From the NCBI RefSeq assembly GCF_003334315.1, contig NZ_QOWR01000096.1: 5,353 nucleotides of DNA. One strand, given 5' to 3'. The position numbers and the translations under genes were made by a program. Positions within the stretch are counted from its first letter, which is position 1; each line of letters opens with the position of its first letter. The notes below the pieces were generated by a model. It was not told where the DNA came from. It made no database searches and was given only the letters and a program-made list of their open reading frames with translations. Below are positions 1 through 5,018 of the stretch, in pieces. The stretch is from Escherichia coli (GTDB lineage Bacteria; Pseudomonadota; Gammaproteobacteria; Enterobacterales; Enterobacteriaceae).

Positions 1-75
1 TTATCGTGAGAGTAATTCATCGGCACGTTAAATCATATCAGGCGTAATACCACAACCCTTAAGTTAGCGCTTATG
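1..75. mobile_element. Terminal end of an IS186-like insertion sequence (IS4 family); partial, element continues left of the window, terminus at about position 75
   Basis: Reading the minus strand from position 75 gives CATAAGCGCTAACTTAAGGGTTGTGGTATTACGCC..., which I recognise from memory as the IS186 terminal inverted repeat (IS4-family ACTTAAGG-type end). As I recall, E. coli K-12 carries an IS186 copy immediately next to yfeA. Only one end is visible, so inverted-repeat pairing and target-site duplication cannot be checked here. Confidence 0.5.
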
Positions 76-103
76 GGATAATTCCCCGGTTTTTTTACGC
101 CTG

Positions 104-2293
104 TTAATCAGCTAATGGCTGCGGGCGACCAATCAAATACCCTTGCAGATATTGCACCCCGAGCTTATGCAATAGCGCCTGCTGCTGTTGCGTCTCGACA
201 AACTCCGCGACCACACTCAATGACTTCGCTTTCGCCAGATCGGTAATTGATCTCACAATCATCGCATCCAGCGTGTTCGTGACAATATCTTTCACAAAGA
301 CGCCATCAATTTTGATGATATCAGCCTGCAAACGCTTTAACCGTTCGTAGTTGGCATATCCGGTGCCAAAGTCATCAATCGCAATCCGGAAACCAAACTT
401 ATGCAGCTGCTCGATGTTGTACATGCTGCTTTCTGCGTTAGAAAACGCCTGCTCCTCGGTGATCTCAAGAATGACCGCCTGCGGGGAGATGTGATAACGC
501 TTAAACAGACGAATAATCCGCCCGGCAATATTCTTTTGCAGCAGCGTGAGCGGCATTAAATTGACTGAAAAGCGCGGTCCTTTTTTGTCGCAAGGGTGTG
601 TTGCCAGCCACTTCAACAAGGATTCCAGCACTTGCAAATCAAAACGCGCGCTAAGGTTAAACTGAGCAATAAGGGGCAGAAACTTATCCGGGGTCATAAT
701 GCCGCCGTCATATTTCAGTCGCGCGAGGATCTCATCATAACCTTCACCCTCTTTGTTGCGAATTGGCTGGGCGTAGAGCAGCAAATCACCCTGATCTAAC
801 GCCGTGCGAATGGTATTCAGCAATAGCACCTGTTTAGTGGTCTGCCCGGAAACCATCTCCTCTCTGCTATCCAGCGCCAGCACATGATGATGTGCGCAGG
901 ATTGCTCCGCCAGCCAGCTTAACTGCCCCAACAAGGGTTGCAGGGTTTCCTGATTTCCATCAAAACGCCCCCAGGCAGCACCATAGCCCATATCCAGCCC
1001 GGTATTGTTCCAGTGAATTTGCCGACTATTCAGGATGTTAACCATATGCTGGAGTCGCCCTTCCGTTTCCGGCCCGCTCAGCACTAACAGCAGTTCACTA
1101 CCCGGCAATTGATACAACTTTTCGTTTTCCTGCATCAACGGCAGCAGCGTACGGCAAATTGAGCGGATACAGTGAACGCGCATCATTAAGCCGTAATGAC
1201 GACTCATAAACTCAAGATTATCAATGCGCAGGCAGCAAAAACTCTTGCCCGCCTCTTGCTCCGGCGCTTGTTCCAACGCACGAAAGTTGGGTAGGAGCGT
1301 TAACGGATCTGTCAGCGCCTGCAAATGCCAGCGGCGATTAAGCCATTCACTGCGATGATAAATGCGCACCATATAGAGCAGGCAAACGCTAAAGGAAATC
1401 AGCACCGCAAGAATAAATGCCAGCGAATATTCGGTTTCCACCCCTTGCAAAAAGTTCTGGTTGTAATTCAGAAGGCAAAGCGTTGAAACAGCCCAGGTGA
1501 GATTTAAAAACGGATAGCGAAGCTTACCGACCCCGAGGGTAAAGATGATGAAGAAAACGGGTACCAGGTAACCGGCAATAAAGTCGTTTTCATAAGGTGT
1601 GCACAACAGAAGTAGCAGCACGCTTAACGCTGCCAGCCAGCTTAAGGTAAATGCGCGTTTCTCTTTGCCCAACGACGGAGCGATATCCCTGCGCCACAAT
1701 ATCTGCGCAAAGTGGGGACTTACAATCATGCGAGTGAGATAGTAGAAAAGCATGTTGTAAATCAGCACAGCGGTGAAAAGGCTTAGCAAATCAACGACCG
1801 TGAAAATGGCATCCGCATCGCCGAAAAAGGTGGATATCTTTAGCGGGAAATCAAAGAAGCTCCCCACAAGATACATGCTGCATTTGATGCCGATCGGCGT
1901 CACCAAACCAAGCCAGAACAGACGTTGCCAGACATATCGGCTGGTCAATCCATAACGCCAACGCGTCCCCAGCTGCCAGCGTAATATTGCGCAGGCACAC
2001 AACACGACAAACGTCTGGCTACCGAGCATGACCGCAGTCTGTAAAAAAGAGAGATGAAAGTTCCACAGATTGGTGCAAAACATCCCGCATAAAACGGGAA
2101 CGACACCGCGCCAGCCAAAGATAAACAAGATTGACAGCATTACGCACAGTGGCATCCACGCCAGAAAGATATAACTGGAATGGATAATGGCAAGTGGCGA
2201 AATAAAACGGGATAGCTGAATAAGTACCACGGTGAGCGTAAACGCTAGTGTGAATATCTTGATATTTTTTATCAGGTTATGCTCCACAAACAT
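104..2293 (-). CDS. pdeA: c-di-GMP phosphodiesterase PdeA (YfeA): N-terminal MASE1 membrane sensor domain, degenerate GGDEF domain, C-terminal EAL domain; 729 aa
   Basis: Single long minus-strand ORF ending in TAA at 104-106. The supplied ORF (104..2410) starts at a GTG; I place the start at the in-frame ATG at 2293 (MFVEHNLIKN...), which gives the 729 aa I remember for K-12 YfeA and begins directly with the hydrophobic multi-TM segment. A weak GAGAG Shine-Dalgarno-like element lies about 12 nt upstream. The C-terminal half carries EAL-domain signatures in the translation: YAQPI...EILARL, LEITEEQ, IDDFGTGYANY, KIDGVFV, EFVET. The GGDEF-equivalent position reads QLPGSEL, so the cyclase domain looks degenerate. 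Confidence 0.88.
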   Translation of the reverse strand: MFVEHNLIKNIKIFTLAFTLTVVLIQLSRFISPLAIIHSSYIFLAWMPLCVMLSILFIFGWRGVVPVLCGMFCTNLWNFHLSFLQTAVMLGSQTFVVLCACAILRWQLGTRWRYGLTSRYVWQRLFWLGLVTPIGIKCSMYLVGSFFDFPLKISTFFGDADAIFTVVDLLSLFTAVLIYNMLFYYLTRMIVSPHFAQILWRRDIAPSLGKEKRAFTLSWLAALSVLLLLLCTPYENDFIAGYLVPVFFIIFTLGVGKLRYPFLNLTWAVSTLCLLNYNQNFLQGVETEYSLAFILAVLISFSVCLLYMVRIYHRSEWLNRRWHLQALTDPLTLLPNFRALEQAPEQEAGKSFCCLRIDNLEFMSRHYGLMMRVHCIRSICRTLLPLMQENEKLYQLPGSELLLVLSGPETEGRLQHMVNILNSRQIHWNNTGLDMGYGAAWGRFDGNQETLQPLLGQLSWLAEQSCAHHHVLALDSREEMVSGQTTKQVLLLNTIRTALDQGDLLLYAQPIRNKEGEGYDEILARLKYDGGIMTPDKFLPLIAQFNLSARFDLQVLESLLKWLATHPCDKKGPRFSVNLMPLTLLQKNIAGRIIRLFKRYHISPQAVILEITEEQAFSNAESSMYNIEQLHKFGFRIAIDDFGTGYANYERLKRLQADIIKIDGVFVKDIVTNTLDAMIVRSITDLAKAKSLSVVAEFVETQQQQALLHKLGVQYLQGYLIGRPQPLAD

Positions 2294-2501: not shown

Positions 2502-2577
<76 letters not shown>

Positions 2578-2812: not shown

Positions 2813-3157
2813 ATGACACCAGATGAACTTGCCAGACTGACCGGCTATAGCCGCCAGACCATTAATAAATGGGTACGCAAGGAAGGCTGGACAACGTCAC
2901 CAAAACCTGGCGTCCAGGGTGGCAAAGCCCGACTGGTTCACGTCAATGAACAGGTTCGTGAATATATTCGCAATGCTGAACGTCCAGAAGGTCAGGGAGA
3001 AGCGCCTGCCCTTTCTGGTGATGCGCCGCTTGAAGTATTGCTGGTGACACTGGCGAAAGAGATGACGCCAGTTGAACAAAAACAGTTTACATCCTTGCTT
3101 CTGCGGGAAGGGATTATCGGATTGTTACAACGCTTAGGGATTCGCGATAGCAAATAA
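2813..3157 (+). CDS. yfeC: YfeC, small putative DNA-binding protein with an N-terminal excisionase/MerR-like winged HTH (DUF1323-type); 114 aa
   Basis: The supplied ORF is 2798..3157. I favour the internal ATG at 2813 (MTPDELARL...) because a strong Shine-Dalgarno AAGGAGAGG (2803-2811) sits directly upstream and it gives the 114-aa length I recall for K-12 YfeC; ATG 2798 remains possible. HTH signature ELARLTGYSRQTINKWVRKEGW. Stop TAA at 3155-3157. Confidence 0.82.
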   Translation: MTPDELARLTGYSRQTINKWVRKEGWTTSPKPGVQGGKARLVHVNEQVREYIRNAERPEGQGEAPALSGDAPLEVLLVTLAKEMTPVEQKQFTSLLLREGIIGLLQRLGIRDSK

Positions 3158-3158
3158 T

Positions 3159-3551
3159 ATGAAAAGATTACGCAATAAAATGACCACCGAAGAACTGGCT
3201 GAATGCCTCGGTGTGGCTAAACAAACTGTTAACCGTTGGATCAGAGAAAAAGGCTGGAAAACGGAAAAATTTCCCGGCGTGAAAGGCGGTCGTGCCAGAC
3301 TTATTCTGGTCGATACGCAAGTTTGCGAGTTTATTCAGAACACGCCAGCCTTCCATAACACACCAATGTTGATGGAAGCTGAAGAGAGAATTGCTGAATA
3401 CGCTCCTGGAGCACGCGCCCCGGCGTATCGACAAATCATCAACGCGATAGATAATATGACAGACATTGAGCAGGAAAAAGTCGCGCAATTTTTGTCACGT
3501 GAAGGAATTCGCAATTTCCTCGCCCGTCTCGATATTGACGAATCAGCATAA
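3159..3551 (+). CDS. yfeD: YfeD, paralog of YfeC; small putative DNA-binding protein with the same HTH type; 130 aa
   Basis: ORF starts at ATG 3159, 1 nt after the yfeC stop (TAAtATG), with no convincing independent Shine-Dalgarno, which suggests translational coupling. The N-terminus EELAECLGVAKQTVNRWIREKGW and C-terminus align with YfeC at about half of positions by eye. Stop TAA at 3549-3551. Confidence 0.85.
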   Translation: MKRLRNKMTTEELAECLGVAKQTVNRWIREKGWKTEKFPGVKGGRARLILVDTQVCEFIQNTPAFHNTPMLMEAEERIAEYAPGARAPAYRQIINAIDNMTDIEQEKVAQFLSREGIRNFLARLDIDESA

Positions 3552-3593
3552 ATAAAAAACGGCAGGATATTATCTCCTGCCGTTTATCTTTTT
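3551..3593. terminator. Bidirectional rho-independent terminator shared by convergent yfeD (+) and gltX (-)
   Basis: Perfect 11-bp stem AAACGGCAGGA (3557-3567) / TCCTGCCGTTT (3575-3585) with a 7-nt loop. It is followed on the plus strand by ATCTTTTT and on the minus strand by TTTTTTATTT. It lies between the yfeD stop (3551) and the gltX stop (3603). Confidence 0.8.
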
Positions 3594-3602
3594 ACACGCT
3601 AA

Positions 3603-5018
3603 TTACTGCTGATTTTCGCGTTCAGCAATAAAATCCAGCGCTTTGTTGATACGCTCGATACTGCGGGTCTTACCAATTGCGTGAACGGTAACATCCAGTG
3701 CTGGAGACTGCCCCGCACCGGTTACGGCGACACGCAGCGGCATACCAACTTTACCCATACCCACTTCCAGCTCATCCGCCGTCGCCTGAATAGCGTGATG
3801 AACGTTTTCAGCGGTCCAGTCAGTAATCGCGGCCAGTTTGTCACGAACCACTTCCAGCGGCTGACGCGCTACCGGACGCAGATGTTTTTTCGCGGCGTCG
3901 GCATCGAACTCAGCAAAATCTTCGTAGAAATAACGGCAGCTCTGTGCCATCTCTTTCAGCGTCTTGCAGCGTTCGCCCAGCAGTTTCACCAGATCAGCCA
4001 GCTGCGGGCCGTTACGGGTATCGATATTTTCCTGCTCAATGTGCCACTGTAAGTGAGTAGCAACATACTCCGGCGGCAGCGCGTTAATGTAGTGATGGTT
4101 CAGCCACAGCAGCTTGTCGGTGTTGAACGCACTGGCAGATTTGCTGACGGCATTCAAAGTGAAGTATTTGATCATCTCTTCACGAGTGAAGATTTCCTGA
4201 TCGCCGTGGGACCAGCCCAGACGCACCAGATAGTTCAGCAGTGCTTCTGGCAAATAACCGTCATCACGATACTGCATTACGCTGACTGCCCCGTGACGTT
4301 TGGACAGTTTTTTACCGTCATCGCCATTGATCATAGAAACGTGCGCGTAAACCGGCACCGGCGCTTTCAGGGCCTTAAGAATGTTGATCTGGCGTGGCGT
4401 GTTGTTGATATGGTCTTCGCCACGGATAACGTGGGTGATTTCCATATCCCAGTCATCGACAACCACACAGAAGTTATAGGTTGGGGAACCATCGGTACGG
4501 CGGATAATAAGATCGTCCAGTTCCTGGTTGCTGAACTCGATCGGACCACGGATCTGATCGTCAAAAACAACAGAACCTTCCTGCGGGTTAGCAAAACGTA
4601 CAACACACGGTTCATCATCAGCATGATGCTCATGGCTGTGGCGGCAGCGACCGTCATAACGCGGCTTCTCACCTTTCGCCATTTGCTCTTCGCGCAGCGC
4701 TTCCAGGCGCTCTTTAGAGCAATAGCATTTATAAGCAGTGCCCTCTTCCAGCATCTGATCGATCACCGCGTTGTAGCGATCAAAACGTTTGGTCTGGTAG
4801 TACGGACCTTCATCCCACTCCAGGCTCAGCCAGTTCATGCCATCCATAATGGCTTCGATAGCTTCCGGCGTGGAACGCTCAAGATCGGTGTCTTCAATAC
4901 GCAGCACGAACTCACCGCCGTGGTTACGTGCAAAAAGCCAGGAGTAAAGAGCAGTACGCGCGCCGCCAACGTGCAGATAGCCTGTTGGGCTTGGCGCGAA
5001 GCGAGTTTTGATTTTCAT
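3603..5018 (-). CDS. gltX: Glutamyl-tRNA synthetase (GluRS), class I aminoacyl-tRNA synthetase; 471 aa
   Basis: Translation begins [27 protein letters not shown] with the class I HIGH motif (HVGG), contains the KMSKS-type motif KLSKR, and has the zinc-binding CYC...CRH segment of E. coli GluRS. ATG at 5018 is preceded by Shine-Dalgarno TAAGG; stop TAA at 3603-3605. The length matches E. coli GltX as I recall it. Confidence 0.97.

Follow-up and report, generated by a model that had tools for sequence, protein, structure and literature searches.

We found that positions 1-75 of the window (the whole stretch of Escherichia coli DNA that was analysed, 5,353 nucleotides) are one end of an IS186 element, which has integrated into the loop of a predicted bidirectional Rho-independent terminator lying between nupC and pdeA. 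Integration duplicated GGATAATTCC and separated the hairpin arms by 1.3 kb. Transcripts of pdeA would no longer be stopped 5-30 nt past the stop codon and would cross the terminal repeat into the transposase gene, and nupC transcripts would enter the element antisense; in K-12, which has this element in the opposite orientation, these relations would be reversed. The two orientations occur in near-equal numbers, which would reflect repeated independent insertions at a hot spot whose symmetry allows entry either way. We put the probability of this account as a whole (IS186 in a shared terminator, predicted read-through and repeated hits) at roughly 0.88. Genome comparisons covered 5,426 complete E. 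coli genomes, with the locus of E. coli C (L001) as the main point of reference, and the features on which the argument rests are as follows.

1-75, minus strand: transposase-proximal (left) end of IS186, identical to L001 4001-4075 of E. coli C.
1-20, minus strand: first 20 nt of insL, the transposase gene, with its ATG at 20-18 (reverse complement ATGAATTACTCTCACGATAA).
21-52, minus strand: leader of 32 nt between the insL ATG and the terminal repeat.
53-75, minus strand: 23-bp terminal inverted repeat of IS186, CATAAGCGCTAACTTAAGGGTTG, an exact and unique match.
76-85: pdeA-side copy of the target-site duplication, 10 bp, GGATAATTCC, defined by comparing the junctions with the single copy in the empty site.
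76-96, plus strand: terminator remnant, comprising the 3' arm TCCCCGG (83-89) and a T7 run (90-96), with GGGA (75-78) left to pair.
97-103: native spacer, unaltered, identical in empty-site and occupied genomes.
104-2293, minus strand: pdeA (yfeA, b2395), a MASE1-GGDEF-EAL cyclic-di-GMP phosphodiesterase according to the PGAP and MG1655 annotations, with its stop codon (TAA) at 104-106.

The identity of the element is given by its terminal repeat and by genomes in which the whole of it is present. On the minus strand, positions 53-75 match CATAAGCGCTAACTTAAGGGTTG with no mismatches; this is the sole match in the window even when up to three mismatches are allowed, and none is expected by chance. 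A chance resemblance to IS186 was rejected, as the 23-mer is exact and 103/103 bases of this end of the window are shared with hundreds of genomes. The remainder of the 1339-bp element lies upstream of position 1. E. coli C equals the window over 1-2577 and there the whole IS186 occupies L001 2737-4075, 1339 bp with perfect 23-bp inverted ends, the far end bearing the inverted copy of CATAAGCGCTAACTTAAGGGTTG. This element is the exact reverse complement of the MG1655 feature annotated "insertion sequence:IS186C" (insL3), at 1339/1339 bases. The insL start seen in the window agrees with the coding sequence at 2908-4020 (minus strand) of L001, an intact open reading frame whose 370-aa product scores 133.3 bits on NCBIfam NF033592 (transpos_IS4_1, IS4 family transposase; cut-off 115). 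PGAP names the transposase 'IS4-like element IS421 family transposase', and window 1-103 matches loci annotated in this way in 2,188/5,426 complete genomes. Positions 1-75 are thus apparently the left end of a complete and apparently functional IS186, an IS4-family cut-and-paste element. The initial annotation, made from the window sequence, had already recognized an IS186 end and placed it 28 bp from the pdeA stop codon, and both the identification and the distance (76-103) are borne out; the start of the transposase gene within the window had been overlooked.

Both ends of the insertion can be read at the E. coli C locus. With a slash marking the junction, the nupC side reads TAA (the nupC stop codon), then gaccatacataaaaaagccGGGGATAATTCC/CATAAGCG, and the pdeA side reads CGCTTATG/GGATAATTCCCCggtttttttacgcctg, then TTA (the pdeA stop codon); in short form these are GGGGATAATTCC/CATAAG and CTTATG/GGATAATTCCCC, respectively. 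The same junctions and duplication were seen again across 19 sampled loci. The empty site holds one copy only (GGGGATAATTCCCC), and taking out the element together with one copy of GGATAATTCC leaves AAAAAAGCCGGGGATAATTCCCCGGTTTTTTT. Comparison with genomes lacking the insertion, proposed at the outset as a check, therefore reconstructed both the empty site and the target duplication. The exact limits of the element depend on convention: the MG1655 annotation gives IS186 1345 bp, which here takes in three more bases (GGA, window 76-78). GGA...TCC adjoins the terminal repeat in every IS186 target seen, and because the target is palindromic with these bases beside the repeat, the boundary is ambiguous (1339 versus 1345 bp). 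The length of the duplication is equally ambiguous for the same reason, being 10 bp here or a 6-bp core, ATAATT, when counted in the manner of Lee et al. 2016 (PMC5009759).

The target itself fits a published rule, according to which IS186 inserts at 5'-GGGG(N6/N7)CCCC-3' and, the target being palindromic, goes into one site either way round; K-12 has 54 such sites, only 19 of them N6 (Lee et al. 2016, PMC5009759). The nupC/pdeA hairpin, GGGG-ATAATT-CCCC, conforms to this target and has its core duplicated. Like palindromes occur at the other two MG1655 copies and at one BL21 copy, among them GGCGGGGATCACTCCCCGCC downstream of dnaJ and GCGGGGATTACTCCCCGC next to hokE. As a separate observation, IS186A (L022 141-1479) and IS186B (L023 911 onward) of MG1655 have hairpin palindromes of the form GGGGA-N4-TCCCC at gene 3' ends. 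This suggests, on sequence grounds, that IS186 targets may often coincide with stem-loops.

The empty site has the properties of a terminator in both directions. The reconstructed 330-nt version is uninterrupted in 4,441/5,426 genomes, where the annotated genes flanking it are nupC and pdeA, and an 80-nt version was found in 4,412. Within it, AAAAAAGCCGGGGATAATTCCCCGGTTTTTTT is a predicted bidirectional intrinsic terminator common to the converging genes nupC (plus) and pdeA (minus). Read on the pdeA strand, a 7-bp G+C-rich hairpin (CCGGGGA/TCCCCGG, loop AATT) is followed by CTTTTTT. A scan of an empty-site locus from a BL21 derivative (L004) called two terminators, one per strand: CCGGGGAATTATCCCCGG then CTTTTTTATG on the minus strand, with seven pairs of which six are G-C, and GGGGATAATTCCC then CGGTTTTTTT on the plus strand. 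For RNA of the intact hairpin the predicted folding energies were -24.4 kcal/mol (z = -4.94) for the pdeA strand and -22.6 kcal/mol (z = -5.35) for the nupC strand, and 0/200 shuffles fold as well as the intact site. A G+C-rich hairpin with an immediate U-tract, and hence a predicted terminator, is therefore present on both strands, and it is intact in approximately 82% of complete genomes.

The same criteria give a different picture for the occupied site. IS186 sets the hairpin arms 1.3 kb apart, and the stem remaining in the window is the 4-bp GGGA/TCCC beside the T7 run. A consensus scan of window 1-400 detected no terminator-like site on either strand, z-scores for RNA folds of the window version were -1.3 and -1.6, and the minimum-energy fold of the plus strand lacks the 4-bp stem. 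The insertion lies in the terminator loop and leaves no predicted terminator for nupC or pdeA at this site. The initial annotation had concluded that pdeA lacks an obvious terminator of its own and that no stem with a T tract follows its stop codon on the minus strand. The second statement agrees with our scan; the first holds for the window sequence and not for the empty site, where the 7-bp hairpin and CTTTTTT follow pdeA in about 82% of genomes. The lack of a pdeA terminator is due to the IS186 insertion only, since the ancestral site has one. A promoter-like match on the minus strand at 107-78 was disregarded, as the empty site has it too and its score is the minimum, 9/12.

A more specific suggestion was that GGGATAATTCCCC-GG-T7 on the plus strand is a terminator for a gene upstream of the element or for read-out from it. 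The sequence elements are present, GGGATAATTCCCC occupying 75-87, GG 88-89 and T7 90-96, but the first G of GGGATAATTCCCC doubles as the final base of the terminal repeat, so that the two overlap by one base. What had been read as a self-standing hairpin is the distal half of the shared nupC/pdeA terminator plus one copy of the duplication. Nevertheless, this remnant might still terminate IS read-out, or nupC read-through, ahead of pdeA antisense: it offers a short G/C stem with a T7 run after it, and for the intact site the scan did call a plus-strand version with five pairs, GGGGATAATTCCC. Against this, only four pairs (GGGA/TCCC) are possible in the window, located 2 nt from the T run and below the scan minimum of five, and the stem appears in neither the minimum-energy nor the centroid fold of the plus strand (z = -1.3). 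We therefore consider residual termination by the remnant unlikely, and the original reading of it as a terminator, which fails the scan criteria and has no 4-bp stem in the minimum-energy fold, is not retained.

With the terminator split, the consequences for transcription would depend on the orientation of the element. Because the transposase start lies in window 1-75, pdeA and the transposase gene are co-directional in the window, 83 nt apart; in K-12 the arrangement is opposite. Nothing between the two genes is predicted to end transcription, and transcripts of pdeA are therefore expected to continue, in sense orientation, into the transposase gene. Rho-dependent termination, RNase processing or a long-range stem in the read-through RNA could limit this read-through. 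Such a stem is found in the predicted RNA, where window 95-103 pairs with 41-49 in a 9-bp outer stem (overall z -1.6). It belongs to a 12-nt inverted repeat, TATCAGGCGTAA/TTACGCCTGTTA, at 36-47 and 95-106 (11/12 complementary), which connects the inside of IS186 with the surroundings of the pdeA stop codon and is present only in the window's orientation of the element. By a rough estimate, approximately 0.01 such inverted repeats are expected by chance in a stretch of this size. The folding predictions leave the start codon outside the stem, and the stem itself is probably coincidental. Across the whole element in L001, terminator-like sites are at chance level (2 versus 1.7 expected), and these counts were therefore not used for placing the end of read-through.

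We examined how often, and in which orientation, the site is occupied, using a junction-specific 90-mer for each orientation (E <= 1e-30). Some 4,412-4,441 genomes have an empty site and ~940 an occupied one, or 82% empty with ~8.6% and ~8.8% for the two orientations, in accordance with the early suggestion that the insertion is polymorphic between strains. Approximately 43% of the ~2,188 IS186-carrying genomes have a copy at the nupC/pdeA site. The occupied genomes are divided as follows.

Window orientation: 464 genomes (410 exact), for the most part natural isolates, ETEC H10407 and E. coli C among them.
K-12 orientation: 475 genomes (447 exact), mostly K-12 laboratory derivatives, with some natural isolates.

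The two orientations are not confined to separate lineages. K-12 and E. coli C carry the same element with the same junctions in opposite orientation, and their flanks are without mismatch over 1,200 bp on the left side and 2,500 bp on the right. MAFFT-aligned distances over 1.25 kb plus 2.3 kb of flank were obtained for 19 occupied loci, in which the IS186 copies are 0-2 SNPs apart. Both orientations were found on each of three nupC-flank haplotypes.

Haplotype alpha: E. coli C in the window orientation; K-12 in the K-12 orientation.
Haplotype beta: H10407 in the window orientation; 510016 in the K-12 orientation; BL21 empty.
Haplotype gamma: HCM-22C-2 in the window orientation; B25FEP and ws5-3 in the K-12 orientation.

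For haplotype gamma both copies of the duplication are GGATCATTCC, and the exact empty allele of this variant is present in 757 genomes. The gamma insertions are thus independent of those on alpha and beta. Presence/absence polymorphism of IS186 at this site therefore takes the form of empty alleles and of alleles occupied two ways on several haplotypes. The distribution requires a minimum of four events overall, no fewer than two of them independent insertions. With three or more flank haplotypes each carrying the element both ways round, the nupC/pdeA site has probably been hit repeatedly. Spontaneous insertion of IS186 at the same position and in opposite orientation has been observed at the lon promoter (Lyons et al. 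2011, PMC3045373), which makes repeated hot-spot insertion the simplest account.

An alternative for the orientation switches is inversion of the element in place, by recombination between the 23-bp terminal repeats (25-26 bp with the palindromic target). At this locus E. coli C and K-12 differ only in IS orientation, a like orientation pairing recurs on two further haplotypes, and the 19-locus sample alone is compatible with inversion for some of the switches. This process would, however, operate at the limit of homologous exchange, 25 bp of inverted homology being the lower limit for RecA-mediated events. The abundance of empty alleles also argues against it, BL21 having the beta flank and 757 genomes the exact gamma empty allele, and no such inversion of IS186 was found in the literature searched. 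Moreover, IS186 enters palindromic targets both ways at measurable rates and with identical junctions (PMC5009759, PMC3045373). In-place inversion is accordingly regarded as quite improbable, and repeated insertion is preferred.

It is very improbable that the match is a mere relic, such as a solo IS end or a degenerate one, for although the window holds just 75 bases of the element and copies at the site in B25FEP, 510016 and ET896 have frameshifts or internal stops, an annotated transposase gene adjoins the exact junction in the sampled rows of the 464 genomes in the window orientation, and E. coli C, equal to the window over 1-2577, has a complete element with an intact 370-aa open reading frame. 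In the three exceptional loci (L005, L007 and L010, respectively) the annotation gives the transposase gene a frameshift or an internal stop, and some IS186 copies at the nupC/pdeA site are, on this annotation, apparently decaying. Other loci show further changes. IS1 interrupts pdeA in L012 (NCCP 13717, 8089-11055) and in strain C21, besides the downstream IS186. In L021 (EM20-18-50) the duplication is mismatched, with GGAGAGATCC on the pdeA side and GGATAATTCC on the nupC side. In L018 (OkiPb01676) an IS186 lies beside pdeA at 6685-8075, but its other neighbour is hyfB instead of nupC, and the flanks are mismatched (GGGGATCCTCC versus GGATAATTCCCC); this sequence pattern indicates a probable rearrangement between two IS186 copies.

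The wider region has the order nupC-pdeA-alaX-yfeC-yfeD-gltX-valU, and the window was matched in 5,426/5,426 complete genomes. The open frame of pdeA runs a further 39 codons upstream to a GTG at 2410, giving a 768-aa reading frame as compared with the annotated 729 aa. Rfam matches in the window are two tRNAs only. Only one tRNA-Ala(GGC) gene is present in the window (2502-2577; 2497-2577 compared with L001 6497-6692), in contrast to two tandem copies (alaX/alaW, 115-bp unit) in E. coli C, K-12 and 59/60 sampled genomes; one copy is also present in the sampled strain 19KM1776. The single copy is probably due to recombinational loss of one repeat unit or to assembly collapse. The last base of the window (5353), which follows the first tRNA-Val, is not the one found in E. 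coli C (L001 9468) but equals the base that comes after copies two and three of tRNA-Val, a hint that the source genome may differ in its number of tRNA-Val copies.

The closest known counterpart is IS186C (insL3, b2394) of MG1655, which has the same 1339-bp sequence, site, junction bases, duplication and neighbours (nupC and pdeA/yfeA). The difference is one of orientation: in K-12 the transposase gene has its start on the nupC side and shares the direction of nupC, whereas in the window its start is on the pdeA side and it shares the direction of pdeA. The original paper on the target consensus is said to be that of SaiSree et al. in 2001, which reportedly described hot-spot insertions of IS186 at GGGG(N6/N7)CCCC. 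Known hot spots in the lon promoter of E. coli B, menC and fimA (PMC5009759, PMC3045373) have in common with the window the G4-N6-C4 palindrome and the duplicated core, as well as insertion both ways round at a single position and independent hits that recur. The window differs in that its target is the bidirectional-terminator stem-loop of converging genes, whereas the other hot spots are promoter or coding sequence; the expected effect would be loss of termination here, in place of gene inactivation. Compared with other bidirectional Rho-independent terminators of E. coli, the empty site is alike in having a symmetric G+C-rich hairpin between an A-tract and a T-tract, but the structure in the window is split by the 1.3-kb IS and neither half meets the criteria for a terminator.

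The predicted read-through also recalls the 'fold-back inhibition' of IS10 and IS50, members of the IS4 family. The likeness lies in a host transcript that would enter the transposase end in the sense direction and in an RNA stem, predicted in the window, that encloses the terminal repeat. Unlike in those elements, the stem stops ~20 nt before the ATG and leaves the start codon uncovered (z -1.6), and we take this as a resemblance only. We know of no documented case of anything like fold-back inhibition for IS186.

Part of what we describe is already known, as the IS186 found here is at the locus annotated IS186C in K-12, and the target rule and orientation behaviour have been published. What is added is the reconstruction of the split nupC/pdeA terminator, together with the frequency of each site state in the population and the case for repeated insertion, which will be unsurprising to specialists. 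A full-text literature search for IS186 together with nupC, yfeA or pdeA returned no matches; a preprint (10.1101/2024.07.17.603904) describes intrinsic-terminator families overlapping IS186. A broader possibility, which we hold to be doubtful, is that the target rule in effect steers IS186 to the stem-loops of intrinsic terminators, each hit at this site ending nupC/pdeA termination and coupling the transposase to read-through; all three copies of K-12 would lie in GGGGA-N4-TCCCC hairpins at the 3' ends of genes, and the nupC/pdeA terminator would have received at least four separate hits, with both orientations represented.

The site is a clear natural example of a repeatedly hit IS186 hot spot, of little importance beyond correct annotation. 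The insertion explains the apparent terminator loss of pdeA and nupC both here and in K-12, which is useful for the reading of K-12 transcriptome and Term-seq data. The arrangement in K-12 is a minority state, 82% of E. coli genomes having an intact bidirectional terminator. Since K-12 and most natural carriers are opposite in orientation, effects on pdeA, nupC and the transposase are not transferable from K-12. If the broader possibility of steering to terminator stem-loops is true, the transposase would be under read-through from pdeA in the window and from nupC in K-12, and IS186 activity would be coupled differently between strains to the expression of c-di-GMP or nucleoside-uptake genes.
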